Of a DNA stretch of 64,000 nt, positions 6,056 to 64,000 are shown one piece after another. The stretch comes from Clostridia bacterium. GTDB taxonomy: Bacteria; Bacillota; Clostridia; UMGS1883; UMGS1540. Under the pieces are notes generated by a model that ran no database searches, was not told the DNA's origin, and saw nothing but the letters and a program-made list of their open reading frames with translations. The stretch is taken from assembly GCA_045592445.1 (NCBI GenBank), contig JAZNUV010000040.1, positions 864 through 64,863 of the forward strand. Direction: 5' to 3'. A program made the position numbers and the translations under genes. The number at the start of each line of letters is the position of its first letter. The stretch's first letter is position 1.

Positions 6056-6538
6056 TTACAGTGTCCAGGGAAAAAATCCTTTGTTTTTCAGCTCATCGCG
6101 TACATCTCCGGCAATGCTGACATTGTAAGGTGCAATTAAGAAAATACCACCGGAAACCTTTTGGATATTACCTTCTAATGCATAAACAACACCACTTATA
6201 AAATCAAGCACTTTAACTGCATCTTCTTTTGTTAAATCTTCAAGATTTACAACAACAGCCTTTTTTGCTTTCAGTCTGTCCGCAATTTCGCTTGCGTCTT
6301 CATATTCCGCCGGTTGTAAAACGGCAACCTCAAGTTGCGTAGTTGCTGTCATGCTGACAACTCTGTTTGTTCCCACCGAAGAATTTGAAGTCTTTTTGTA
6401 GCTTGTAAACATCTTAGGTTCACTCTTCGGTTTTACAAGTTCCTCTTCAACCTCGAATTCTTCAAACTCATCCTCTTCATTACCAAAGAAAATTTCGCCA
6501 AGCTTACCAAATATTTTTGCCACTTTTTTTACCTCCAT
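6056..6538 (-). CDS. sepF: cell division protein SepF
   Basis: C-terminal SepF core (VVNLEDLTKEDAVKVLDFISGVVYALEGNIQKV); synteny between yggS and divIVA. Confidence 0.85.
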   Translation of the reverse strand: MEVKKVAKIFGKLGEIFFGNEEDEFEEFEVEEELVKPKSEPKMFTSYKKTSNSSVGTNRVVSMTATTQLEVAVLQPAEYEDASEIADRLKAKKAVVVNLEDLTKEDAVKVLDFISGVVYALEGNIQKVSGGIFLIAPYNVSIAGDVRDELKNKGFFPWTL

Positions 6539-7218
6539 TCTCTATTTCCAAATATCGCACTACCAATTCGTACAATATTTGCGCCTTCTTCAATCGCGAC
6601 CATATAGTCACCACTCATCCCCATGGACAAATACTCCATGCAGCTATGCTTATATTTTTTCGCTGAAATTTTATCAAATAAAACGCGCATATTATAAAAC
6701 GCATTTCTTATTGTTGCTTGATCTGACGTGTGCGGGCCAATTGTCATTAGCCCTTTAATATGAACGTGATTTCTTTCCTCATTCTCTTCTATGATCGGCA
6801 GGACATCCGCATAGGAAACACCAAACTTGCTTTCCTCACCTGATGCGTTCACTTCTATAAGCACATCTTGAATTATCCCTATTTTTTTCGCTTCTTTCTC
6901 AATTACGTCTAAGAGTTTGGAACTGTCGACGGCATGGATTAGCGATGATTTTCCAACAATATACCGAACTTTATTTGTCTGTAAATGACCAATGAAATGC
7001 CAAATGGCATTTTGAACATGGTCATACTTATCCATAAATTCCTGTACACGGTTTTCTCCAATATACAAAAGACCTGCATCAATTGCCTCTTGTATACGAG
7101 GCGGAGAAACAGTTTTCGTTGCGCCAAGTAAACATATATCTTCTTTTTTTCGCCCTGCTTTTTGTGCTGCTTTTGCAATGTTTTCTTTAATTATAAAAAG
7201 ATTGTCTGAAATCACCAA
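6529..7218 (-). CDS. yggS: YggS/YlmE family pyridoxal-phosphate homeostasis protein
   Basis: 229-aa alanine-racemase-fold N-terminal domain pattern; conserved dcw-cluster position upstream of sepF. Confidence 0.85.
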   Translation of the reverse strand: MVISDNLFIIKENIAKAAQKAGRKKEDICLLGATKTVSPPRIQEAIDAGLLYIGENRVQEFMDKYDHVQNAIWHFIGHLQTNKVRYIVGKSSLIHAVDSSKLLDVIEKEAKKIGIIQDVLIEVNASGEESKFGVSYADVLPIIEENEERNHVHIKGLMTIGPHTSDQATIRNAFYNMRVLFDKISAKKYKHSCMEYLSMGMSGDYMVAIEEGANIVRIGSAIFGNREWR

Positions 7219-35755: not shown

Positions 35756-36334
35756 ATGCCATATATAATTTGTGCTATATTCGGCTATCTCCTTGGGAGC
35801 ATAAATGCCTCCGTTATCTATTCGCATTTTAAAGGACGTGATATTCGCACTGTCGGCAGCGGAAATGCAGGGGCAACAAACACCTTGCGTACGTTCGGAA
35901 AAAAGGCGGCACTTTTTGTCGTTTTTGTAGATATTCTAAAAGGTGTTATAGCCGTTTTGCTCGCGCGTACCTTCGGTAATACATATTGTGCCTATTGCGC
36001 AGGATTTGCAGCAATACTTGGTCATAATTTTCCGCTTTATTTTGGTTTTCGCGGCGGAAAAGGTATCATTACGTCTCTTGCCGTTATGTGCATGACGGCA
36101 CCCCAAGAGGCGTTCATTGCACTTTTTGCAGCAATTCTTGTTATAGCCGTGACGCGCTACGTCTCACTCGGGTCAGTTTTGGGTTCACTCCTCTTTGGTA
36201 TTCTCTCAATTATTCGCTCGCAGGACATATACTTTACAGTCTTTGTTGTTCTTGTTGTTTTATTGGCTATCATTCGTCACCATTCAAATATCAGTCGCCT
36301 TATACGCGGCACAGAAAGGAAGCTCGGAAAATGA
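35756..36334 (+). CDS. plsY: glycerol-3-phosphate acyltransferase PlsY
   Basis: LGSINASVIYS...GSGNAGATN signature; multi-TM. Confidence 0.95.
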   Translation: MPYIICAIFGYLLGSINASVIYSHFKGRDIRTVGSGNAGATNTLRTFGKKAALFVVFVDILKGVIAVLLARTFGNTYCAYCAGFAAILGHNFPLYFGFRGGKGIITSLAVMCMTAPQEAFIALFAAILVIAVTRYVSLGSVLGSLLFGILSIIRSQDIYFTVFVVLVVLLAIIRHHSNISRLIRGTERKLGK

Positions 36335-37323
36335 AAATATCAATTATCGGTTCCGGCGGTTGGGGCACAGCGATTGCTTCACTGCTTTGCCAAAACGAAC
36401 ATGACGTAACGCTTTGGTCATGGAAAAAAGAAGAAAGTGAGGCATTGGCACTTCATCATGAAAATAAAGAATTTCTTCCTGGTATAAAACTATCGGAAAG
36501 TATTTCATTTACAGATAATCTTGCTTGCGTTGCTACAGCAGAAATGGTTGTAATCGCAACGCCTTCAAAAGCATTAGAAAATACTGTACAAGCATTTTCG
36601 TCCCATCTTTCTCCAAATACGATTTTAGTAAATCTCACAAAAGGATTATGTGAAAACACATTGGAACGCTTTAGCGAGGTTATCGCACGTATATGCCCCC
36701 ATAATCCTATTGTTGTACTCAGTGGCCCATCGCACGCAGAAGAAGTTGGTAAAAAAATACCGACTGCAGTTGTTGCTGCTTCCGCAGATATAGCTGCCGC
36801 CAAGCTTGTTCAAGATGCTTTTATGACACCATCTTTCCGTGTGTATACGGCGTCAGATGTTGTAGGTGTTGAGCTCGGTGCTGCACTCAAAAATGTAATT
36901 GCACTTTGTGCCGGTATTATGGACGGGCTTGGGCTCGGTGATAATACTAAAGCCGCCCTTATGACACGCGGTCTTTCCGAAATGATGAGACTGGGTGTTT
37001 CCATGGGGGCAGATGCTTCAACCTTTTCGGGGCTTTCCGGCATTGGGGATTTAATCGTCACTTGCACGAGTATGCACAGCAGGAACCGACGTGCCGGCAT
37101 CTTAATCGGGCAAGGGAAAACAGCCGAAGAGGCCATTGCAGAAGTACATATGGTTGTGGAGGGCTATTATGCAGCCAAGAGCGCCTATGCACTTTCTAAA
37201 AAATACAATGTAGATATGCCCATTGCGCATGCTGCATATAGCGTTCTTTTCGAAAATGCATCCCCTGCCGATGCCGTCAAAACATTGATGACACGAGAAA
37301 AAAAATCAGAAGCAGAATTTTAA
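36331..37323 (+). CDS. gpsA: NAD(P)H-dependent glycerol-3-phosphate dehydrogenase
   Basis: MKISIIGSGGWGTA Rossmann start; ATGA overlap with plsY. Confidence 0.95.
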   Translation: MKISIIGSGGWGTAIASLLCQNEHDVTLWSWKKEESEALALHHENKEFLPGIKLSESISFTDNLACVATAEMVVIATPSKALENTVQAFSSHLSPNTILVNLTKGLCENTLERFSEVIARICPHNPIVVLSGPSHAEEVGKKIPTAVVAASADIAAAKLVQDAFMTPSFRVYTASDVVGVELGAALKNVIALCAGIMDGLGLGDNTKAALMTRGLSEMMRLGVSMGADASTFSGLSGIGDLIVTCTSMHSRNRRAGILIGQGKTAEEAIAEVHMVVEGYYAAKSAYALSKKYNVDMPIAHAAYSVLFENASPADAVKTLMTREKKSEAEF

Positions 37324-38355: not shown

Positions 38356-38569
38356 TTAAAATCTCTCCCTTTCCATATCATTATGCATTTTATAATATCA
38401 TACCATACTTTGTAAGTCAAGATAAAATTGCATATTTTTTCAAAAAAAAATAAAGATTTTTTCTATATTTTATGTGTATCGTTTAAAACAAGTAGATTTT
38501 TATTTATTTTTGTATTTTCTTATATCAATCGGAAACACTATAGTATACTACTGCATTTTGGGAGGAACT

Positions 38570-41500
38570 ATGAGACAAAGCATTAAAAAAAGTTTTTTTC
38601 AAATCAAAAAAACATATTTATCACTAAAAACCGAAAACAAAACAATGAAATCAGGCTCAGATGCCGAATGGCTTTCTGATAATTTCTATATTTTTGAACA
38701 GGAATATCTGGCAGTAAAAACCATACATCCAAAAGGTTTAAATGCTAAAAAAGCAGTCCAAACCATGTCCAGATTTATTGAATCTTTTTTTGCAAAGCAT
38801 GATTATCTTTTAGAGGAAAGTTCGTTAAAATCCGCGCTTGATGAAGCACAAAAAACATCATATTTCTCCTCCTGTGCACTACGTATGCTTCCTTATTGCA
38901 TACGTAAAGCCCTTCTGACGCGGGCAGCAGTTTTATGCCGTACGCCGCAAAAGGACGGATTGTTTAAAAATATAATTTTCTCTTTCCTTGCACTCCGTAA
39001 TATCAATATGGAAAAGATTTTTGCTTCGCATTCTGTCGTTGATTCCATATTCTCCACTGATTTAATATATGAAGAAATGACAGAAAACACAAAAGAAACC
39101 TATCGAAAAATTATAACAAATCTTGCTTTGAAAAGTAAAAAAAGCGAACATGATGTAGCCAACGCCGTAGTATCCTTAACAAAAAAGAAAAAAGGGTCTG
39201 CAGCACACGTTGGCTTTTTTCTGATTGGTAACGGCAGAGATGAATTGCAGGATGTTCTTCATTTGAAACGGCAAAAAAAAATAAACAAGTCACTCATATA
39301 CATTCTGTCTGTTCTTTCCCTTACGCTTTTAACGGGTCTTTCTCTTTTTTATATAACAAGGCAAATACTATGGACGCTTTTATCTTTGATTCCCATTTCT
39401 GAAATTATAGTCACTCTTTTACAGTATGTTGTACTAAAATCAACACCTGTGCGCGAACTGCCGGCAATCAAATCAGAAAATTGTGTTTCTGAACCCGTTC
39501 TTATTGTGTACCCTACTCTTCTTTCCTCTGCAAAAAAAGCTGAAGAAATGGCAAAAAAACTGGAAACTGCATATCTTGCAAATTGCAATCATAATCTTCA
39601 TTTTGCAATTTTAGGTGATTTTAAAGATGCAAATGAGAAAAACGAGGATACCGCTATACCGAATGCTGCCTCAAACGCCATCCGTAATCTGAATGCACAA
39701 TATGGTGACCGCTTTTATTTTCTGCATCGATCACAAGTTTACAGTAAAGCACAAAAAAAGTGGATGGGATGGGAGCGAAAACGTGGTGCGCTTTCGGATT
39801 TAAACAATTTTTTACGTGGAGAATATACATTTGAGTACACAGAAGGACGTATACAAAATCTCCAAAATCTCCAAAATATAAACTATGTTTTAACGCTTGA
39901 CGATGATACACTTCTACCGCCGGATTCCGTTACACGCCTTTTAGGCATTGCCCTGCATCCGCTTAATAAGCCAATTATACAAAATGGCATTGTAACAAAT
40001 GGCTATGGTATTATTCAGCCTCGCATCTGTGTTCGCATTGAAAGTGCATGGAAAACCTTATTTTCACGTATATTCGCAGGGCAAGGCGGAATCGATACCT
40101 ATCACACGTCTGTATCTGAATTTTACATGGATTTATTTGGTGAGACTGTTTTTACAGGGAAAGGTCTTTATCATGTAGATACATTCCGAAAGTGCATGTC
40201 TATCCCACCTGATACGGTTTTAAGCCATGACCTTTTAGAAGGCAACTATGTCCGTTGTGCATTGGCATCTGATGTACAAGTTTTCGACGGATTCCCGCAC
40301 CGATTCCCTGCGTATGTAATTCGCCAACATCGTTGGATTCGCGGTGATTGGCAAATTATGCCGTGGTTATTTAAATTTGTACGGACTGAAAATGGCGATA
40401 AGGTTAAAAACCCACTGTCGGTTCTGTCTAAATGGAAAATATTTGAGAATTTACGGCGTAGTGTTACACCGATTTTTCAACTTATACTCATCTTATTTGG
40501 GAATCCGCTCTCGGTTCTCACTGCATTTGCCTCTCTCCTTTTTCCAATGCTTTTATACTGTATCGATGCAATCTTACAAAAAAGCTTTTTGTATATGGGA
40601 GAAAAGATATACACTTTCCTCATCTATGGATTTCGAGGCATTCTTTATCAATTCACGCTTTCCGTTGCCTTTCTTGCACAAAACGCGTATTATGCATTTC
40701 ATGCAGTTGTAACAGGCATTTATCGCACAATTACTCATAAAAAAACATTGGAATGGGTAACTGCTGCAGATGCAGATACAAACGGTATTTTTACCCTTGC
40801 CTCCTCCTGCATTTTTATGCTACCTTCTGTTGTTATTGGTCTTATATGCCTTCTTTTGGTTTTAAATGGTTTTTTTGAGAGCGGCATTAAACTTATACTT
40901 GGCATAGTTTTTATTATTGCGCCCGTCCTTCTCTATATTACCGGACAGGAAAGCGAAACGAAAACGCCCGTACTTTCAAAAAAAAGAGAGATGCTTTTAC
41001 GCGAAACTGCAAAGCACACTTGGAATTTCTTTCGGGATTATATGACAGAAGAAGACCATTTTTTACCTCCCGACAATATACAAATAAAACCATATAAAGG
41101 AATTGCGCACAGAACAAGTCCGACCAACATTGGATTTGGTATGATTGCATGTCTTTGTGCCTATCATCTTTCATTTATCACAGCACAGGAACTGGAAACA
41201 CGACTTACAAGAACCATTGATACAATTGAATCTCTTGACAAATGGAAGGGGCATTTGTATAACTGGTATGACACAAAAACGCTTTCTCCACTCTCTCCGC
41301 GTTATATTTCCACTGTGGACAGCGGCAATTTCGTTTGCTATTTAATTGTCGTAATGATGGGGATTTCCTCTATATTTGACAAATCACATCCCCTTATAAA
41401 ACGACTGCAACGCTTAATTGAAAATACAAATTTTATCCCGCTTTATAATGCAAAGAAAAATCTTTTTGCCATTGGTTTTTCGGTTGACGAAAACAAGCTT

Positions 41501-44500
41501 TCTTCTGCTTATTATGATTTTCTTGCCAGTGAGGCAAGACAAGCAAGTTTTATTGCCATTGCGCTTGGGCAAATTCCCGCAAAGCACTGGTTCTCTTTGG
41601 GGCGCGGATTAACTGCATCGGATGGATATAAAGGGCTTATGTCTTGGTCAGGCACTATGTTTGAGTATTTTATGCCGCTTCTCATTATGAGAACATACCG
41701 TGGTACGCTTTTAGACGAAACCTATCGCTTTGCTTTAAATTGCCAGAAACGGTATGGCAGGCGGAGACGTATTCCGTGGGGTGTATCTGAATCCGGATTT
41801 TTTGGATTTGATTCTGACGGGAGCTACCAATACAAAGCATTTGGTGTGCCTTCGCTCGGTCTTGTCCGTCAGACAGATGATGATGTCGTTATCGCCCCTT
41901 ACGCAACTCTTTTAGCGCTGATGATAGACCCCCGTACCGCACTACAAAATATGTCTCTGCTAAAAAAGGCAGGCGTATATGGTGAGTATGGCTTTTATGA
42001 AGCAGTAGATTATACGCCTTCTCGCATGCACGGAAATATGCGCCGCGGTATTGTTAAAAGTTATATGGCGCACCACGCAGGCATGTCTTTAGCTGCGATT
42101 ACAAACGTTTTGGCTGATAATATTCTGCAGCAATATTTTCATGCATATCCAAAAGTGCATGCATATGAGCCATTTTTAAAGGAACGTATACCCTTGCGCA
42201 CACAGGTTATGCAAGCACGAAACGAGCGCGTTCTGCCTGTCCGTTCACGTTATAAAGCACAAAACACATGTGTACGTTCATTTATGCGTTCAGATACACT
42301 TCCCCGCCCCATTACGTTTTTGTCAAACGGCAGTTATCATCTTTTAATAGACAGTTCAGGTTTCGGCTACAGTTCACTTGACACGGTTCAATTTAACAAA
42401 TTTTATCCCGCTCGTGGTGGTGGAGAATCTGTGTATGTTGTAAATCCTACGACTCATGACGTATGGGACGGATACGGAGAACGATGTACCTTTTCGGGAC
42501 ATGCTGCGGAATACTTTGGTTCGCATGGTAATATCGAAACTGTATTATCTGTCACAGTATGTCCTGATGATAATTGTGCTTCACGCCGCATTACAATTAT
42601 CAATAAATCTGGAAAAAGACGCGTTTTTGAAGTTTATTATTATACGGATATCTGTTTAACTGTTCCCTCCGCCGCACTTGCACACAACACCTTCTCAAAT
42701 CTATTTGTCACAACAAAAATGGAAGCAGATGTTCTATATGCAGAAAGACGGCAAAGAAGTAATAACGAAAAAACATTTATTGGCTTTTTGACTGCATATA
42801 CAGAGGGTAACTCCATCGGAGAAATTCAATTCGATACAGACAGATTGTCATTTTGTGGGCGTGAGGGCATTTCACCCATGACATTTGAAGGAACGGATAT
42901 CCTCGCAGGCAGACAAGGTATTGTGTTAGACCCTTGTTTTGCCGTAAAGCTTCGAATTTCTATAGAAAGCGGTGAAAGCGGCTCCGTCACCTTCCTTTCG
43001 GGCATGGCGGAAACACATGAAAAAGCAGCTTCTATTACGAAAAAATATAAAAAAAATCCAATAAATTTCAAAGAAGCAGCTGCATTGTACGTTAAGAATA
43101 ACTTACCTGTAAATTTCAAAGAGAGCGAAGAAATTGATATTATGCATATTGCAGGCTATATGCTCTATGGTAATAATCCCGACCTATCTCTGTACAGAGA
43201 GAAAAACACGAAAATGCGAAATACCTTGTGGAAAATGGGGATATCGGGCGACTATCCAATCTTAACGGTAAAAATTAGTAAAGAAGAAAATGCAGAAATT
43301 TTATCTACGCTTGTAAAAGCGCAAAAATATTGGCTGTATAACGGGTTCCGAACTGACCTTGTTGTTTTTTGTGATGAACCCGGCGGCTACACGATGCCAA
43401 TTTACCAAATGGCAAGTAAAATGAAAAATACAGGCATATTTATCTTGAAACGATGCGATGTAGATGCAGGCGATATAAATTTTTTATATGCTGTCTCCTC
43501 TGTGTATATTGATAGTGAAAAAAACGGAATCAAAAATATTCCACCCTATCCTGCTATCCCCCAAAAACGTTTGCCTTTAAAAGAGAATCACCACGATAAA
43601 AAACCTGATATACCCCCACTTGTCTATATGAACGGATACGGCGGGTTTCATAAAGAAAATTCCGAATACGTTATAATACAAACAAAAGGCGGTTCCACAC
43701 CCATGCCCTGGGTCCATGTTATTGCAAATCCGTCTTTTGGGTTTATAGCAGGCGAATCAGGCGGCGGTAACACTTGGTGCGATAACAGTCATGCCTTCCG
43801 TATATCACCTTGGTATAACGATGCAGTATTAGACCCAATGGGAGAACGACTTTTTCTCTTTGACGAAAATGATATTTGGTCACCCATGGCAGGCACATTC
43901 CGTGAGGAAGGCCATTTTATGACGCGCTACGGCTTTGGCTATGCAGTATATACACGTATTACGCGCGATTTATTTCATGAGGCGACACTCTTCACACCCC
44001 CTACGGGCAAGAAAAAAATCATTTGTCTGCATATCCGAAACGAGGGTAAATCTACACGCCGATTTCATGTACAATATGAATTTGTGCCCGTACTTGGCGT
44101 GATCGAAAAAGCGGATGATATAAAAATCAAAGTTGAAAAAAACTGTGTTTATGCAGAAAACGCAATGACAAATCCGAATCTATCCGTATATCTTTCGGGT
44201 GGAGATGACTCGATATGCAATGGCGACGGGCATCTTGTCCGGGCAAAAAAAGAAATTGAACTAAAACCCAATGAAACAGCAGAAGTTGTTTTTGTACTCG
44301 GTGCAGACAACACTCCTATCGTGAATGCGGAAACGGCCCTGTCCGAAACCAAAGCATGGTGGAAAAATCTTCTCAGCGGTATTTCTGTGGAAACAGATAC
44401 AGTTGCAGATGACCTTTTGCTTTCCGGATGGCTCTTGTACCAGACGGTAGCCTGTCGTTTATTTGCAAAGTCAGCATTCTATCAGTCTGGAGGTGCCACA

Positions 44501-45811
44501 GGATTCCGCGACCAGTTGCAAGATGCTCTGGCACTTTTGTATACGGCACCCGAAATGGTTAAACAACAAATACTCTATCATGCAGCCTATCAATTTCAGG
44601 AAGGCGATGTGTTTCATTGGTGGCATCACGACGAACGAGGTGTTCGCACAAGATTTACGGATGACAGATTATGGCTTCCTTATACACTCTGTCGCTATCT
44701 CGAGGTGACAGAGGATGAAAGTATCTTGGATGCCCCTGTTTCCTTTATAATAGAGCCGCCTTTAGAACCCCACGAGGAAGAACGCTATACGTTTGTAAAA
44801 GAAAGAACTGCACCCCATCCCCTATATGAGCATGCTGTAAGAGCAATTGAAATTTCTCTTTCAAAAGGACAACACGGCTTACCGCTTATGGGTGGCGGAG
44901 ATTGGAATGACGGCATGAACGCTGTCGGCATACGCGGTGAAGGAGAAAGTGTTTGGCTAGGTTGGTTTTTAAAACACGTACTTGAACTTTTTATTCCAAT
45001 CGCCGAAAAACGTGGTGATATTGAACGTGCCAAAAGGTACAAACACGAAATGCATTTACTCTTAGAAGCGCTTGAAGCAACCTGGGATAATACACATTAT
45101 GCACGTGCATATTTTGACAGCGGCGCACCTCTCGGCACCTCCGACTCTACGGAATGTTCGATTGATGCCATCAGTCAGGCATGGGCAGTCATTGCAGGCG
45201 GCGGGCGTGTCTCCAGACAAAAAACTGCAATGGATACTCTTTACAGCACGCTTGTAGACCGTGAGAAAGGAATTATACGGCTTCTTGCTCCACCCTTTCA
45301 AAACAGCAAAGAAAGCCCCGGCTACATTCAAAGCTATCCTGCCGGCATACGAGAAAATGGCGGTCAATATACGCATGGGGCAATATGGGTTGCCATAGCA
45401 TTTGCAATGCTTGGAAATCCTGCTCGGGCTTTGGAATTGTTTCGAATGTTAAATCCTGTTTTAAGGTCGGAAACCCGTGTAAGTGCAAATATATATAAAG
45501 CTGAGCCTTATGTAATGACAGCGGATATCTACACGGCAAGAGATCATGTCGGACGCGGTGGCTGGAGTTGGTATACGGGTGCCGCGTCATGGATGTATCA
45601 GCTTGGCATACAATATATACTTGGCTTTAAAAAACAGGGAAATATTGTTTCCTTTAAACCTTGCCTCCCTCCTGAAAAATTAGGGTTTACGCTTCGATAT
45701 CGTTACAAATCTTCTATGTATATTTTCCACGTGCACGGCAATTCCGAAGATCCCATTGTACTTTCGGATGATGGAAAAACACATGAAATTACAATTGGTA
45801 AAAAAGAATAA
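38570..45811 (+). CDS. giant multidomain glycosyltransferase/glycoside-hydrolase-like protein resembling cyclic beta-1,2-glucan synthase (TM - GT84-like - TM - (alpha/alpha)6 glucoamylase-like - GH94-like)
   Basis: ATG 38570 with GGGAGGA RBS; the track's GTG extension is discarded. Processive-GT motifs LTLDDDT and QHRWIRGDWQIMPW; at least six predicted TM helices; PTNIGFG...YNWYDT middle domain; C-terminal GGATGFRDQLQDALAL...DVFHWWH and GGGDWNDGMN motifs. Confidence 0.8.
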   Translation: MRQSIKKSFFQIKKTYLSLKTENKTMKSGSDAEWLSDNFYIFEQEYLAVKTIHPKGLNAKKAVQTMSRFIESFFAKHDYLLEESSLKSALDEAQKTSYFSSCALRMLPYCIRKALLTRAAVLCRTPQKDGLFKNIIFSFLALRNINMEKIFASHSVVDSIFSTDLIYEEMTENTKETYRKIITNLALKSKKSEHDVANAVVSLTKKKKGSAAHVGFFLIGNGRDELQDVLHLKRQKKINKSLIYILSVLSLTLLTGLSLFYITRQILWTLLSLIPISEIIVTLLQYVVLKSTPVRELPAIKSENCVSEPVLIVYPTLLSSAKKAEEMAKKLETAYLANCNHNLHFAILGDFKDANEKNEDTAIPNAASNAIRNLNAQYGDRFYFLHRSQVYSKAQKKWMGWERKRGALSDLNNFLRGEYTFEYTEGRIQNLQNLQNINYVLTLDDDTLLPPDSVTRLLGIALHPLNKPIIQNGIVTNGYGIIQPRICVRIESAWKTLFSRIFAGQGGIDTYHTSVSEFYMDLFGETVFTGKGLYHVDTFRKCMSIPPDTVLSHDLLEGNYVRCALASDVQVFDGFPHRFPAYVIRQHRWIRGDWQIMPWLFKFVRTENGDKVKNPLSVLSKWKIFENLRRSVTPIFQLILILFGNPLSVLTAFASLLFPMLLYCIDAILQKSFLYMGEKIYTFLIYGFRGILYQFTLSVAFLAQNAYYAFHAVVTGIYRTITHKKTLEWVTAADADTNGIFTLASSCIFMLPSVVIGLICLLLVLNGFFESGIKLILGIVFIIAPVLLYITGQESETKTPVLSKKREMLLRETAKHTWNFFRDYMTEEDHFLPPDNIQIKPYKGIAHRTSPTNIGFGMIACLCAYHLSFITAQELETRLTRTIDTIESLDKWKGHLYNWYDTKTLSPLSPRYISTVDSGNFVCYLIVVMMGISSIFDKSHPLIKRLQRLIENTNFIPLYNAKKNLFAIGFSVDENKLSSAYYDFLASEARQASFIAIALGQIPAKHWFSLGRGLTASDGYKGLMSWSGTMFEYFMPLLIMRTYRGTLLDETYRFALNCQKRYGRRRRIPWGVSESGFFGFDSDGSYQYKAFGVPSLGLVRQTDDDVVIAPYATLLALMIDPRTALQNMSLLKKAGVYGEYGFYEAVDYTPSRMHGNMRRGIVKSYMAHHAGMSLAAITNVLADNILQQYFHAYPKVHAYEPFLKERIPLRTQVMQARNERVLPVRSRYKAQNTCVRSFMRSDTLPRPITFLSNGSYHLLIDSSGFGYSSLDTVQFNKFYPARGGGESVYVVNPTTHDVWDGYGERCTFSGHAAEYFGSHGNIETVLSVTVCPDDNCASRRITIINKSGKRRVFEVYYYTDICLTVPSAALAHNTFSNLFVTTKMEADVLYAERRQRSNNEKTFIGFLTAYTEGNSIGEIQFDTDRLSFCGREGISPMTFEGTDILAGRQGIVLDPCFAVKLRISIESGESGSVTFLSGMAETHEKAASITKKYKKNPINFKEAAALYVKNNLPVNFKESEEIDIMHIAGYMLYGNNPDLSLYREKNTKMRNTLWKMGISGDYPILTVKISKEENAEILSTLVKAQKYWLYNGFRTDLVVFCDEPGGYTMPIYQMASKMKNTGIFILKRCDVDAGDINFLYAVSSVYIDSEKNGIKNIPPYPAIPQKRLPLKENHHDKKPDIPPLVYMNGYGGFHKENSEYVIIQTKGGSTPMPWVHVIANPSFGFIAGESGGGNTWCDNSHAFRISPWYNDAVLDPMGERLFLFDENDIWSPMAGTFREEGHFMTRYGFGYAVYTRITRDLFHEATLFTPPTGKKKIICLHIRNEGKSTRRFHVQYEFVPVLGVIEKADDIKIKVEKNCVYAENAMTNPNLSVYLSGGDDSICNGDGHLVRAKKEIELKPNETAEVVFVLGADNTPIVNAETALSETKAWWKNLLSGISVETDTVADDLLLSGWLLYQTVACRLFAKSAFYQSGGATGFRDQLQDALALLYTAPEMVKQQILYHAAYQFQEGDVFHWWHHDERGVRTRFTDDRLWLPYTLCRYLEVTEDESILDAPVSFIIEPPLEPHEEERYTFVKERTAPHPLYEHAVRAIEISLSKGQHGLPLMGGGDWNDGMNAVGIRGEGESVWLGWFLKHVLELFIPIAEKRGDIERAKRYKHEMHLLLEALEATWDNTHYARAYFDSGAPLGTSDSTECSIDAISQAWAVIAGGGRVSRQKTAMDTLYSTLVDREKGIIRLLAPPFQNSKESPGYIQSYPAGIRENGGQYTHGAIWVAIAFAMLGNPARALELFRMLNPVLRSETRVSANIYKAEPYVMTADIYTARDHVGRGGWSWYTGAASWMYQLGIQYILGFKKQGNIVSFKPCLPPEKLGFTLRYRYKSSMYIFHVHGNSEDPIVLSDDGKTHEITIGKKE

Positions 45812-45897
45812 AAAAATTTTTTATACCGGGCATGTTTTTTTGAAAAAAGTAAATACTGATATTGTATTATCAATTTTAAATGGGAGGATGTGTGAAA

Positions 45898-46080
45898 ATG
45901 ACACCAAAAGAACTTCTTTATCTCGAAGATTCCCTCGGCATGGAAGAGCAACTTCAAACCAAATGCAACGATTACGCTTCCAAAATCCAGGACGAGTCCT
46001 TAAAAAACACATTAACACAGCTTGCATCTCAGCATCAGCAACACTATAATTGTCTTTTATCACAACTAAAATCTAATTAA
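45898..46080 (+). CDS. CotF-related small spore coat protein (short form)
   Basis: 61 aa; GGGAGG RBS; pattern LxxED...EEQLQTKCNDYASKIQD..LKNTLTQLASQHQQHYNCLLSQL resembles the N-terminal half of the Coat F domain. Confidence 0.55.
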   Translation: MTPKELLYLEDSLGMEEQLQTKCNDYASKIQDESLKNTLTQLASQHQQHYNCLLSQLKSN

Positions 46081-46096: not shown

Positions 46097-46357
46097 ATGG
46101 CAGCAAAGCAAAATATGACGGACCGCGAGTATATGGATGATATACTTTTAACCTCCAAAACACTTTCTAATCTTTATCACTACGCAGTGCAGGAATCGCC
46201 CACGGATAAACTGCATTATGAGTTTAAAAACATTTTAAATCAATCACTTGAAATGCAGCATAATATTTATTCGGTGATGACAGATAAGGGTTGGTATCAA
46301 ACCACACAGGCACCCGAGCAGCAAATCAATCAGGTTATTACGAAATTTTCAAACTAA
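46097..46357 (+). CDS. cotF: spore coat protein F (Coat F domain)
   Basis: 86 aa: MTDREYMDDILLTSKTLSNLYHYAVQES...LEMQHNIYSVMTDKGWY matches the Coat F domain consensus. Confidence 0.65.
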   Translation: MAAKQNMTDREYMDDILLTSKTLSNLYHYAVQESPTDKLHYEFKNILNQSLEMQHNIYSVMTDKGWYQTTQAPEQQINQVITKFSN

Positions 46358-46365
46358 CCATATGC

Positions 46366-46412
46366 AGAACAAAAGGCGGCAGAACAATTTATGTTCCGCC
46401 GCCTTACCGTTT
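46366..46412. terminator. bidirectional terminator between cotF and convergent dedA
   Basis: AAGGCGGC...GCCGCCTT stem followed by ACCGTTTATTT. Confidence 0.5.
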
Positions 46413-46449: not shown

Positions 46450-47058
46450 TTACTTGCGTCCTTTTTTCCTTTTTACAAAAAACCAAATCGCAACTATGAT
46501 AACAACCAATAAAATGACTGCCTTTAAAATCCATTCAATATATATCATTCCTTGTTCCCATGCTTCACCGCATAAGGAACCGGCGATCGATAAAATGGTA
46601 TTCCAAACAGCGCTTCCCAAAAAAGTCAATATCAAAAAAGAACTAAGATTCATTTCTGATATACCGGCAGGAATAGAAATCAAACTCCGCACAATCGGAA
46701 TACAACGACAAAGCAACACTGCTTTGTGCTCATATCTTACAAAAAAACGGTCCGCCTTTTCAATGTGTTCTGCATTTATATGCAATAATTTACCAACTTT
46801 CCCTGCACACAACTTTTTCAGCCGTTCTTTTTTGAGCGCCTTTCCTATGTAGTACAAAAGCAAAGCCCCGAAAAGAGACCCAACGCTGGCTGCAAACGCA
46901 ACTCCAAACACATTCATATTCGTATGCGTTGTCATAAAGCCACCAAATACTAAAACAAGTTCTGACGGAATTGGCGGGAAAATGTTTTCAACGAAAATCA
47001 AAAGACCGATTCCCAAATATCCATATGTATTGATTAACTCGATTAAAAAATCCTGCAT
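46450..47058 (-). CDS. DedA family membrane protein
   Basis: LGIGLLIFVENIFPPIPSELVLVFGGF DedA signature. Confidence 0.85.
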   Translation of the reverse strand: MQDFLIELINTYGYLGIGLLIFVENIFPPIPSELVLVFGGFMTTHTNMNVFGVAFAASVGSLFGALLLYYIGKALKKERLKKLCAGKVGKLLHINAEHIEKADRFFVRYEHKAVLLCRCIPIVRSLISIPAGISEMNLSSFLILTFLGSAVWNTILSIAGSLCGEAWEQGMIYIEWILKAVILLVVIIVAIWFFVKRKKGRK

Positions 47059-56576: not shown

Positions 56577-56597
56577 AAATGATGTTATTTTTGTATA

Positions 56598-56630
56598 TTC
56601 CCCGCAATGAAAGTGAATACTTCTCATTGA
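56598..56630 (+). promoter_or_regulatory. candidate forespore sigma-F/G-type promoter for spoIIR (GTATA-N15-GTGAATACT)
   Basis: GTATA at 56598..56602 and a GnnAATAnT-like -10 element 15 nt downstream; spoIIR is sigma-F dependent in Bacillus subtilis. Confidence 0.35.
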
Positions 56631-56640
56631 GGTGAATTAT

Positions 56641-57276
56641 ATGAAAAAAATTATGATTGCAATTTGTTCAGGGTTTATTGTTACACTTGCCCTTTCTCTA
56701 TATTCCAATACAATTCAATCCGAAATTTCGGACAGTGTATTACGTCTGCATGTCCTTGCAAACAGCGACTCTGCGGCTGACCAAGCGTTAAAATTAAAGG
56801 TACGTGACAGGTTGCTTGCAGAAAGTCGCGATTTATTCCAAAATTGCACTTCGCCCTCGGAAGCACGTGCAGTTTTTTCTGAAAATCATGATAAGTTGCA
56901 AGAAGCAGCAGCGGCAGAAATTAAAAAAGAAGGCTTCACATACCCCGTTTCTATCGCATTAAATCAAAGCTATTTCCCTACTCGGCATTATGGTAATGTT
57001 TCCTTGCCTGCAGGCGAATACGAGGCAGTCCGTGTTGAAATTGGTAATGCTTCCGGAAAAAATTGGTGGTGTGTGATGTTCCCGCCGTTATGTTTTGTGG
57101 ATGGCAGTGTGGATGGTGCTGATGCAAAAGGTACAGAAATGATACAAGAACAACTTGGTGACAATGCGGATATCATAACAAAAGACGGCACCATTGACTT
57201 AAAGCTTCGTTTTAAACTTGTGGATATATTCCAAAGCACATCCCACGCTATACGGGAAGTATTTAAAAAAGCATAA
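56641..57276 (+). CDS. spoIIR: stage II sporulation protein R
   Basis: VLRLHVLANSDSAADQALKLKVRDRLL SpoIIR signature; signal/TM N-terminus; ATG 56641 with GAGGTGA RBS. Confidence 0.85.
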   Translation: MKKIMIAICSGFIVTLALSLYSNTIQSEISDSVLRLHVLANSDSAADQALKLKVRDRLLAESRDLFQNCTSPSEARAVFSENHDKLQEAAAAEIKKEGFTYPVSIALNQSYFPTRHYGNVSLPAGEYEAVRVEIGNASGKNWWCVMFPPLCFVDGSVDGADAKGTEMIQEQLGDNADIITKDGTIDLKLRFKLVDIFQSTSHAIREVFKKA

Positions 57277-62919: not shown

Positions 62920-64000
62920 CTATGCTTCAATGCCAAGCAGTGTATTCACATTCTCTGCTATAGCCGAAATTTTTGCCTCTAAATTGCCGCGTGCAACACC
63001 TGCGTACACCTTGAATTTCGGTTCCGTTCCTGACGGACGAAATGCAATCCAGCTTTTATCCTCAAGTTCAAAGCGCAGCACATTCGATTTTGGAAACTCC
63101 ACAACTTTTTCTGTCCCCGAAACTAAATCAAACCGCTTTCCAACACTGTAATCCGTGTAGGCAACAACACGCGACCAGCCAATTACATCCGGTATGTTAT
63201 CTCTAAGGTTTGCCATCAAATTTTGTATTTTTTCAATACCGTCTACGCCTTCAAAATAAATATTATTTGTCCATTCTTTGTGAATGCCATACTTTGCATA
63301 AAGTTCCCGCATAACGTCGCAAAGTGACATATCACGCGTTTGGTACCATGCCGCCATTTCAGCAATCAAAAGAGAAGCAGAAACAGCATCCTTATCTCGC
63401 GTATAGCTCCCCACGAGATATCCATAACTCTCCTCAAAGCCAAACACATAATTTGCGTCACCTTTTTCCTCGTGGTTCTTTATGGTGTCAGCTATATACT
63501 TAAAACCAGTCAAAACGTCAATGAGCTCCACACCATAATAATCTGTTACAGCACGGACCATTTCAGAGGTTACCACAGTTTTAATGACATAGGGATTTTC
63601 AGGCAAAAGACCGAGAACTGTTTTTTGTGAGAGAATATACTCCGTCAAAAGTACACCCGTCATATTTCCTGTCAAAGCAACAAAAGTGCCATCCTTCTCG
63701 CGTGCCAAAACACCAACGCGGTCCGAATCAGGGTCTGTTCCAATAATCAGGTCCGCATCAACCTTATTTGCAAGTTCAATTGCCAACGCAAATCCTTCTT
63801 TATTTTCGGGATTCGGGCTCTTAACTGTTGGGAAGGCGCCGTCCGGTTGCTCTTGTTCAGCGACAACATAAACTTTTTTAAATCCGGCGCGATGTAAAAT
63901 TTCTTTTACAGGAACAGCGCCCGCACCATGAAATGGTGTGTAAACGATTTTAAGTTCTGCTGCTGTTTTATGCAGGTCTTTATGGATTTGTTGCGAAAGA
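62920..64000 (-). CDS. phosphoglucomutase/phosphomannomutase family protein (C-terminal about 360 aa; gene continues beyond window end)
   Basis: Track ORF starts at an internal TTG. Hand translation upstream continues without a stop (…KIVYTPFHGAGAVPVKEILHRAGF…SPNPENKEGFALAIELANKVDADLIIGTDPDSDRVG), which is the PGM domain II/III signature. Confidence 0.8.
   Translation of the reverse strand, partial: LSQQIHKDLHKTAAELKIVYTPFHGAGAVPVKEILHRAGFKKVYVVAEQEQPDGAFPTVKSPNPENKEGFALAIELANKVDADLIIGTDPDSDRVGVLAREKDGTFVALTGNMTGVLLTEYILSQKTVLGLLPENPYVIKTVVTSEMVRAVTDYYGVELIDVLTGFKYIADTIKNHEEKGDANYVFGFEESYGYLVGSYTRDKDAVSASLLIAEMAAWYQTRDMSLCDVMRELYAKYGIHKEWTNNIYFEGVDGIEKIQNLMANLRDNIPDVIGWSRVVAYTDYSVGKRFDLVSGTEKVVEFPKSNVLRFELEDKSWIAFRPSGTEPKFKVYAGVARGNLEAKISAIAENVNTLLGIEA

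Follow-up and report, generated by a model that had tools for sequence, protein, structure and literature searches.

A compact protein resembling synthases of cyclic beta-1,2-glucan and a conserved forespore-type promoter motif in uncultured Clostridia

[quoted passage not shown] The protein belongs to a compact form of this family, and its gene is preceded by a promoter-like element of the sigmaF/sigmaG type, whose sequence and position are conserved among loci that encode the compact form. Taken as a whole, a compact Cgs with forespore-type transcription is the explanation that fits these data best, and we hold it with good confidence. The enzyme family is already known and large, whereas the compact form with predicted sporulation-type control is new. 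An earlier note on the same DNA had missed both distinguishing features, that is, the compactness of the protein and the conservation of a promoter of the forespore type.

To our knowledge, studies of cyclic beta-1,2-glucans have dealt almost entirely with Proteobacteria, in which these glucans are osmoprotectants of the periplasm and factors in virulence or symbiosis. Thousands of other bacteria, many Clostridia included, carry a synthase of 2,400–3,000 amino acids (aa), and for one subfamily the present locus suggests a concrete hypothesis, namely expression from a forespore-specific promoter.

Domains, catalytic residues and compact architecture

The longest open frame at the locus spans positions 38474–45811 of the forward strand, contains no internal stop, and includes the cgs ATG at 38570 (Table 1). 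Between this start codon and the divergently transcribed gene of a class II fructose-bisphosphate aldolase (fba) lies an intergenic region of 214 bp (38356–38569). The GGAGG of the ribosome-binding site (RBS) is kept at the same place across the aligned orthologous upstream regions. With a GC content of 0.406, the gene does not differ from the window (0.404), and it is under purifying selection, as seen from a dN/dS of 0.07–0.09 in comparison with its closest relative. Full-length relatives comprise an identical protein (P0001) and 15 other cluster representatives of 2,391–2,492 aa.

Pfam models matched the deduced protein in the order Glyco_trans_2_3 (PF13632, residues 439–661, 32.8 bits at a cut-off of 27), Glycoamylase (PF10091, residues 981–1192, 83 bits), two copies of the GH94 supersandwich domain (PF06165, 237 bits), and the GH94 catalytic domain (PF17167, residues 1930–2352, 365 bits). 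In a sequence search of the PDB, five collinear stretches of the protein, which cover query residues 134–2378, matched Agrobacterium tumefaciens Cgs, a structure solved by cryo-EM (8RF0/8RF9; 1,355 bits, E = 0). The protein also matched the cyclization (CY) domain of the cyclic glucan synthase (CGS) of Thermoanaerobacter italicus (8WY1) at 8e-142, and, with its C-terminal domain, GH94 phosphorylases at 1e-54 to 1e-58. Two observations weigh against the family assignment, namely that the glycosyltransferase (GT) domain reached only 33 bits on what is a generic Pfam GT2 model and that none of the NCBIfam models matched the protein. Because of the latter, the assignment rests on the Pfam domains, the PDB sequence matches and the fold matches described below. 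Transmembrane (TM) segments, counted from hydropathy only, were located at residues 241–263 and 265–289, at approximately 632–670 (two) and at 738–794 (two), and thus form a 2 + 4 arrangement around the GT domain.

The residues with a functionally tested or proposed role, as mapped from the studies on the A. tumefaciens (PMC10901819, Sedzicki et al.) and T. italicus (PMC10834661, Tanaka et al.) enzymes, were present in all three catalytic parts of the protein. The GT domain contains D350 (UDP binding), R403, the DxD residues D444/D446 and D554 as catalytic base, and a QHRWIRGD motif contributes R588/W589 and R591. The predicted primer tyrosine of this domain, Y511 in GGIDTY, aligns with GIDPY of A. 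tumefaciens Cgs and was invariant in all 43 aligned sequences. In the CY domain we found D917, E988 (acid/base), E1032 (the pKa-tuning glutamate of the GH189 residue set), E1074 (nucleophile) and H1168/H1169, and the phosphorylase (GP) half contains D1981 and the catalytic acid D2114. Across 16 members of the compact clade, 17 of 17 such residues were invariant, as was Q586 of the QHRWIRGD motif. By analogy to the characterized enzymes, the protein probably uses UDP-glucose to make cyclic beta-1,2-glucan. At 9 kb downstream of cgs there is a gene for a GalU equivalog (394 bits), which tells us no more than that the donor substrate can be produced.

These results agree with the earlier note, in which the ORF had been read as a gene for a protein of roughly 2,400 aa that resembles synthases of cyclic beta-1,2-glucan, with the domain order of Cgs/NdvB/ChvB, at least six TM helices, and its own RBS and upstream region in a spore former. 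The length of 2,413 aa, the collinear match to 8RF0/8RF9, the sequence of GT, glucoamylase-like and GH94 Pfam domains, the approximately six hydropathy segments, the RBS and the 214-bp region all bear out this reading, as does a SpoIIR equivalog in the window (see below). The seven motifs that the note had quoted were all present at the expected places (LTLDDDT at residues 441–447, QHRWIRGDWQIMPW at 586–599, PTNIGFG at 851–857, YNWYDT at 897–902, GGATGFRDQLQDAL at 1974–1987, VFHWWH at 2014–2019, and GGGDWNDGMN at 2108–2117). The note had also proposed searches with profile models and a structural comparison with T. italicus CGS. The former returned the GT2-type and GH94 Pfam matches, so that its caveat of missing GT84 or GH94 hits does not apply, and in the latter the modeled CY domain resembled 8WY1 closely. 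A further concern, that the ORF might be broken by frameshifts in related genomes, was dispelled by the existence of the identical protein P0001 and the 15 full-length cluster representatives.

The compact clade comprises proteins of 2,391–2,492 aa, which share 44–60% identity with the window protein and originate from metagenome-assembled genomes (MAGs) labelled uncultured “Clostridia bacterium” or Oscillospiraceae. In contrast, typical Firmicute Cgs proteins have 2,800–3,000 aa and only 37–40% identity. Among the best 150 representatives in our search, at least 24 were of the compact form, with 2,371–2,502 aa and a single aligned stretch from the N-terminus. According to the alignment, approximately 180 aa are missing clade-wide from the N-terminal domain (NTD) in blocks of 57–66, 9, 85, 12 and 10 residues. 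The CY domain lacks a block of 155–166 alignment columns after residue 937–939. This holds for each of the 16 clade members, for most proteins of medium length and for L016, a second compact form with 2,387 aa and 34% identity. Smaller clade-wide gaps occur after residues 1299, 1618, 1881, 1915 and 2393. The boundaries of the deletions were identical in the 16 full-length cluster representatives. That only this clade had lost the CY insert was a further possibility, which we rejected since medium-length forms (2,657–2,730 aa) lack the insert too.

In A. tumefaciens Cgs, the counterpart of this CY block is the four-helix dimer motif of ~120 residues, and in T. italicus CGS it is the set of “additional alpha-helices”. 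An AlphaFold model of residues 795–1240 (pLDDT 82, pTM 0.86) was matched by Foldseek to 8WY1 with a TMq of 0.87 and a TMt of 0.68, and to 8RF0/8RF9 with a TMq of 0.85–0.87. Based on this model, the CY barrel is predicted to be intact, with only the insert gone. For the modeled NTD (pLDDT 92), the sole significant PDB matches were the NTDs of A. tumefaciens Cgs (TMq 0.76–0.79). As the insert sits outside the active site, its absence is a subfamily difference and no reason for exclusion from the Cgs family. Since the four-helix insert mediates back-to-back dimers in A. tumefaciens Cgs, the compact enzyme probably is a monomer that does not form a dimer of this type. The compact form can be regarded as a natural minimal Cgs, which keeps every catalytic residue but has dispensed with the dimerization helices and part of the NTD, and which could be useful for structural work and for the engineering of cyclic glucan production.

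The forespore-type promoter element

The upstream regions of six compact-form loci could not be aligned except for a block of ~45 nt that adjoins the RBS. This conserved block reads G(T/C/A)ATA-N14/15-GGnnAnA(A/C)TA and equals the SigF consensus of Bacillus subtilis, in which the −35 element is GYATA and the −10 element is GGnnAnAHTR, for example in GAATA-N14-GGTAAAAATA (PMC11599450). It also closely resembles forespore promoters that were mapped in C. difficile, such as that of spoVT (Table S6 of PMC3789822). In the window, the element begins 58 nt and ends 29 nt before the cgs ATG, and it agrees with the consensus at four of five −35 positions and at all ten −10 positions.

We used the strict pattern G[ACT]AT[ATG]-N14-15-GG..A.A[ACT]T[AG] to assess the distribution of the element. 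In 10 of the 13 compact-form cgs loci a match lies 58–62 nt upstream of the start codon, and the gene upstream varies among these ten (fba, AP_endonuc_2, atpC, or a CLIPPER-like gene). Only 3 of the 322 other ORFs (≥100 aa) of the same loci were preceded by the pattern. The motif also accompanies the compact form in L016, despite the identity of just 34%. Not one of 40 long- or medium-form cgs loci had a match at the promoter position, although the medium form L010 contains one at −99. Fisher tests on 11 compact-form loci, ten of which carry the element, yielded 8e-16 and, in comparison with 0 of 33 long-form loci, 4e-9, but these values overstate the significance because the loci are related and not phylogenetically independent.

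No elements of the sigmaA, sigmaE or sigmaK type were conserved upstream of the compact cgs genes, and the best sigmaA-like sequences scored 7–9 of 12 at a different position in each locus. When the region was scanned with the sigma-70 consensus, the divergent fba proved to have a good promoter and cgs did not. Rfam and tRNA scans of the window returned nothing, so that no known riboswitch or leader lies upstream of cgs. The 20-mer GGGCAAAATAAAGCANACTA occurred eight times by chance in JGI metagenome contigs, in no case before cgs or together with a −35 element; hence, the element is not a dispersed repeat.

The same type of motif precedes other genes of the window. spoIIR, a canonical sigmaF gene, has its ATG at 56642 (ORF end 57276) and is preceded at 56593–56622 by the near-consensus SigF-type sequence GTATA-N15-GTGAATACTT, which we took as a positive control, internal to the genome, for motifs of this type. 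A second promoter-like element, detected with a relaxed pattern, lies 5' of the two small ORFs downstream of cgs (Table 1), and equivalent elements precede the same ORF pair in loci L056, L057, L058 and L071. Apart from the cgs element, the only strict match in the window is GAATG-N14-GGCAAAAATA at 6512–6540 on the reverse strand, which overlaps the RBS and start region of sepF and most likely is a chance occurrence.

Judging from the position and conservation of the motif, expression of cgs in the forespore from a sigmaF/sigmaG promoter appears to be the likelier case, albeit by no means a certain one. Such a regulatory link to sporulation would be unexpected, and it is well supported by the comparison of loci. 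Our literature searches retrieved no paper that links Cgs or beta-1,2-glucan to sporulation, and the three co-mentions of these terms were incidental.

Gene neighbourhood, host and distribution

Table 1 Features at the cgs locus (positions in the window).
Feature	Position	Strand	Basis or remark
Promoter-like element, sigmaF/sigmaG type	38512..38540	+	−35 GTATT at 38512–38516, 14-nt spacer, −10 GGAAACACTA at 38531–38540
RBS GGGAGG	38560..38565	+	4 nt 5' of the cgs ATG, read from the sequence
cgs ORF	38570..45811	+	Uninterrupted, 2,413 codons plus stop; read as Cgs family
NTD, all-helical, trimmed (residues 1–240)	38570..39289	+	~180 aa below long forms
TM helices 1–2 (residues 241–289)	39290..39436	+	Kyte-Doolittle windows ≥1.6
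GT84 (GT2-like) glycosyltransferase domain	39467..40444	+	PF13632; residue mapping to A. tumefaciens Cgs
TM helices 3–6 and interface/gating region (residues 626–794)	40445..40951	+	Hydropathy; collinear alignment with A. tumefaciens Cgs
GH189 CY domain, (alpha/alpha)6 barrel, without the Cgs four-helix insert	40952..42214	+	PF10091, 8WY1
GH94-type phosphorylase half: GP1, Rossmann-fold-like region, GP2, catalytic domain (residues 1896–2413)	42215..45808	+	PF06165 in two stretches, PF17167
Second forespore-type promoter-like element	45830..45858	+	GCATG-N14-GTAAATACTG; relaxed pattern; 5' of the yra-like ORF pair
60-aa ORF, yraG/yraE-like partner of the Coat_F ORF	45898..46080	+	Conserved beside compact cgs
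85-aa Coat_F-domain ORF, yraF/yraD-like	46100..46357	+	PF07875, 62 bits (cut-off 25.7)
G+C-rich hairpin, probable terminator	46373..46405		Between the converging Coat_F ORF and uptA/dedA-like gene

The cgs gene has no operon partners. The divergent fba gene is located directly upstream of cgs in the window and in four other loci (L056, L057, L058, L060). In L070 and L071 it is one gene away from cgs, and in L054 the distance amounts to 6 kb. On the downstream side, a pair that consists of an ORF of 59–69 aa and a Coat_F ORF of 85–87 aa accompanies the compact cgs in eight loci (the window, L002, L055–L058, L070, L071), and homologues of the 60-aa ORF were identified in L002, L055, L056 and L057 with E values of 4e-35 to 4e-27. 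In B. subtilis, the split CotF-like pairs yraG/yraF and yraE/yraD are controlled by sigmaG and are forespore-specific (PMC6878958). The earlier note had found it unexpected that the synthase gene lies in a housekeeping neighbourhood of a spore former. This neighbourhood is no oddity of the genome, since members of the clade share the gene order fba-cgs-(yra-like pair).

Several further genes at these loci deserve mention. Five relatives (L054, L055, L057, L058 and L070) have a gene for glycerate kinase, oriented opposite to the compact cgs, as its direct downstream neighbour, and this gene is absent in the window. In L058, spoIVA and yunB are located no more than 5 kb from fba-cgs. In the window, a DedA/VTT gene (46450–47058, reverse strand) converges on the Coat_F ORF; it scored 151 and 119 bits on the NCBIfam models of the undecaprenyl-phosphate transporter UptA and thus remained below their cut-offs of 300 and 250. 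In long- and medium-form Clostridia, cgs is directly preceded by a gene for ~830 aa (6535–9045 in L003, 6624–9143 in L005, and also in L004, L029, L046 and L010). The protein is a fusion of a sugar-1-phosphate nucleotidyltransferase, a left-handed beta-helix and a phosphoglucomutase domain, which presumably provides a dedicated supply of NDP-glucose; the compact-form loci do not contain this gene. Also relevant to the glucose-1-phosphate supply is a 288-aa ORF of the window (62920–63786, reverse strand), which contains only the C-terminal domains of a phosphoglucomutase or phosphoglucosamine mutase and may be a truncated call or a fragment. The mechanically listed gpsA ORF (36088–37323, forward strand, GTG start) overlaps plsY (35756–36334, forward strand) by ~250 nt, and since its Pfam match begins at residue 83, the true start probably lies near 36330.

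The window encodes a SpoIIR equivalog (TIGR02837, 177 bits, cut-off 151.9) as well as MecA, DivIVA and SepF; therefore, the host is an endospore-forming Firmicute. It also carries a DUF512-der-plsY-gpsA cluster. Among the scanned GTDB representatives, the nearest genome was a fragmented MAG labelled “Clostridia bacterium” with 74–76% identity, and the host can be placed with uncultured Clostridia whose relatives are labelled Oscillospiraceae or Ruminococcaceae.

Firmicute homologues of the synthase, which had been described as rare in the earlier note, turned out to be abundant. In an exhaustive search with the first 1,200 residues of the protein, E values of ≤1e-30 were obtained for 3,886 representatives (clustered at 50% identity), which include many Clostridia. 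More than 1,770 matches with E ≤ 1e-10 were obtained among 8,000 scored candidates of a word-indexed search, and the named top matches, which were mostly Clostridia, included Herbivorax, Oxobacter, Anaerovirgula, Caloramator, Tepidibacter, Pseudobacteroides and Desulfosporosinus. Matches in genomes span the Clostridia, Verrucomicrobia, Planctomycetes, Acidobacteria, Bacteroidota and Chloroflexi.

Alternative explanations, proposed function and known systems

Several observations weigh against the proposed explanation, and some of them would suit an ordinary vegetative Cgs, which produces a glucan for osmoadaptation or for the envelope or matrix and whose upstream element is the site of another regulator or of a sigmaB-like or ECF sigma factor. 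Osmoadaptation and host interaction are the known roles of cyclic beta-1,2-glucans, and sigmaB-type promoters have a G-rich −10 element ~14 nt after the −35 element and hence the same geometry as the forespore type. The −35 element of the window, GTATT, deviates from the consensus at one position, and three of the 13 compact loci contain degenerate copies, with one −10 mismatch in L071, two in L070, and no strict match in L059, where GGATA-N14-GGGTAAAATA lies ~25 nt further upstream. Moreover, the two strict matches found on both strands of the window compare with 1.6 expected ones, so that a single match such as that before cgs is at chance level, and the case for the promoter rests on its position and on its conservation among loci that are related rather than independent. 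All that is known of the host, for which forespore expression is proposed, comes from metagenome assemblies. Where the product would go is a weak point too, since neither the scan of the window ORFs for ABC_membrane genes nor the inspection of the other loci yielded a conserved ChvA/NdvA-like exporter near cgs; half-transporter genes occur nearby in just three loci (L053, L070 and L071), without a conserved position. We nevertheless consider purely vegetative expression rather unlikely. The invariant positions of the motif are those of SigF/SigG promoters (A3 of the −35 element; A5, A7, T9 and A/G10 of the −10 element), which a sigmaB-type GTTT/GGGTAT sequence would not keep, and no sigmaA-like element is conserved in its place. 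Furthermore, the same type of motif precedes spoIIR and the yra-like pair, whose B. subtilis counterparts are forespore-specific, whereas the long-form cgs genes of other spore-forming Clostridia lack it.

Two other explanations concern the enzyme rather than its promoter. With ~160 aa of the CY domain and ~180 aa of the NTD, the scaffold lining the primer chamber, gone, the compact enzyme might form a different product, such as a linear beta-1,2-glucan or rings of sizes other than the approximately DP 17–25 of known Cgs enzymes. In A. tumefaciens Cgs the NTD binds the tyrosine-linked primer and contacts all other domains, and the CY insert mediates dimerization. Against a changed product stand the invariance of the cyclization residues (D917, E988, E1032, E1074, H1168 and H1169), the predicted integrity of the barrel, the outward orientation of the corresponding helices in A. 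tumefaciens Cgs, away from the active site, the ability of the isolated CY domain of T. italicus CGS to cyclize, and the lack of the insert in medium-length forms as well. We therefore deem this explanation improbable. Still far less probable is a gene that does not function in this host, be it an incipient pseudogene under decay or a recent acquisition, for instance from proteobacteria, as could be suspected from a length ~400 aa below that of the characterized Cgs enzymes and from the solitary gene without the exporter or nucleotide-sugar partner genes seen elsewhere. Pseudogene status was rejected on the grounds of the intact 7.2-kb frame, the low dN/dS and the residue conservation, to which the 16 full-length representatives with identical deletion boundaries can be added. 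Likewise, we rejected a recent horizontal transfer based on a GC content equal to the surroundings, nearest relatives that are all Clostridia, and the conserved fba-cgs-yra synteny.

For a compact Cgs with forespore-type transcription, we propose the following function by analogy to the A. tumefaciens and T. italicus enzymes. Six TM helices would anchor the protein, with all catalytic domains on the cytoplasmic side. The GT84 domain would glucosylate its own Tyr511 and extend a beta-1,2-glucan from UDP-glucose, the GH94 domain would trim the chain length by phosphorolysis, and the GH189 domain would release the ring through transglycosylation, for which Glu1074 would be the nucleophile and Glu988 the acid/base. 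Transcription of cgs by sigmaF/sigmaG RNA polymerase would, as the promoter motif suggests, most likely lead to glucan synthesis in the developing spore. That non-reducing cyclic glucans of ~3 kDa are made there is a tentative proposal, which we put forward with less than even confidence. As a matter of speculation, such glucans might act as a core solute or dehydration protectant, might be a glucose reserve for germination or, if exported, might function as an osmotic agent in the periplasm-like intermembrane or cortex space. If correct, this would add a new class of endospore constituents and would be the first physiological role assigned to a Cgs in a monoderm bacterium; spore biology would gain a carbohydrate component, and the enzyme family a function outside diderms. 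Should the promoter reading fail, a routine new member of a large, characterized family remains.

Brucella Cgs and rhizobial NdvB are orthologues of A. tumefaciens Cgs/ChvB. The A. tumefaciens enzyme (8RF0, 8RF9; PMC10901819) has the same order of NTD, two TM helices, GT84, four TM helices, CY domain, and GP half with a Rossmann-fold-like region. D350, D444/D446, Y511, D554, R588 and R591 of the window protein correspond to its residues D527, D624/D626, Y694, D739, R773 and R776, and D1981 and D2114 to D2393 and D2528; its R586 in the GT domain and D1104 and E1300 in the CY domain are conserved too. However, the window protein is ~400 aa shorter and lacks the four-helix dimerization motif of the CY domain and ~180 aa of the NTD, besides the smaller gaps named above. 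In contrast to A. tumefaciens, its host is a monoderm without periplasm, its gene has no linked ChvA/NdvA-type exporter, and its promoter is of the sporulation type. A linked ABC exporter of the ChvA/NdvA/Cgt type is typical of the proteobacterial systems but does not define the Cgs family.

For the middle domain, the closest solved structure is the CY domain of T. italicus CGS (8WY1; PMC10834661), the founder of GH189, which also originates from a Firmicute and is highly similar in the parts that align. Its residues E1356, E1400, E1442, H1536 and H1537 correspond to E988, E1032, E1074, H1168 and H1169 of the window protein, which differs by the absence of the “additional alpha-helices unique to CGSs” (chain residues ~148–310), as reflected by the TMt of 0.68. 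The endo-beta-1,2-glucanases of GH144 and GH162 (CpSGL of Chitinophaga, 5GZH; TfSGL of Talaromyces, 6IMU) share the (alpha/alpha)6 barrel and have about the same size (TMq 0.69–0.73), but their identity is only 12–18%, and their catalytic machinery is different, as they hydrolyse with inversion and GH189 transglycosylates with retention. With the GH94 phosphorylases (cellobiose phosphorylase, 3RRS/2CQS; 1,2-beta-oligoglucan phosphorylase), the C-terminal domain shares the Asp of GDWNDG; those enzymes are soluble and stand-alone, whereas the domain in the window is the C-terminal module of a membrane synthase.

On the regulatory side, no Cgs-like glycosyltransferase or glucan synthase turned up as a member of a forespore regulon in the papers that we searched, and membership of cgs is a prediction from its sequence. 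The closest counterpart is the SigF/SigG regulon of B. subtilis, in which spoIIR and the yraG-yraF-adhB-yraE-yraD operon have the same promoter architecture, GYATA-N14/15-GGnnAnAHTR, and the pair of 60-aa and Coat_F ORFs downstream of cgs resembles the sigmaG-controlled yraG/yraF or yraE/yraD of this operon.

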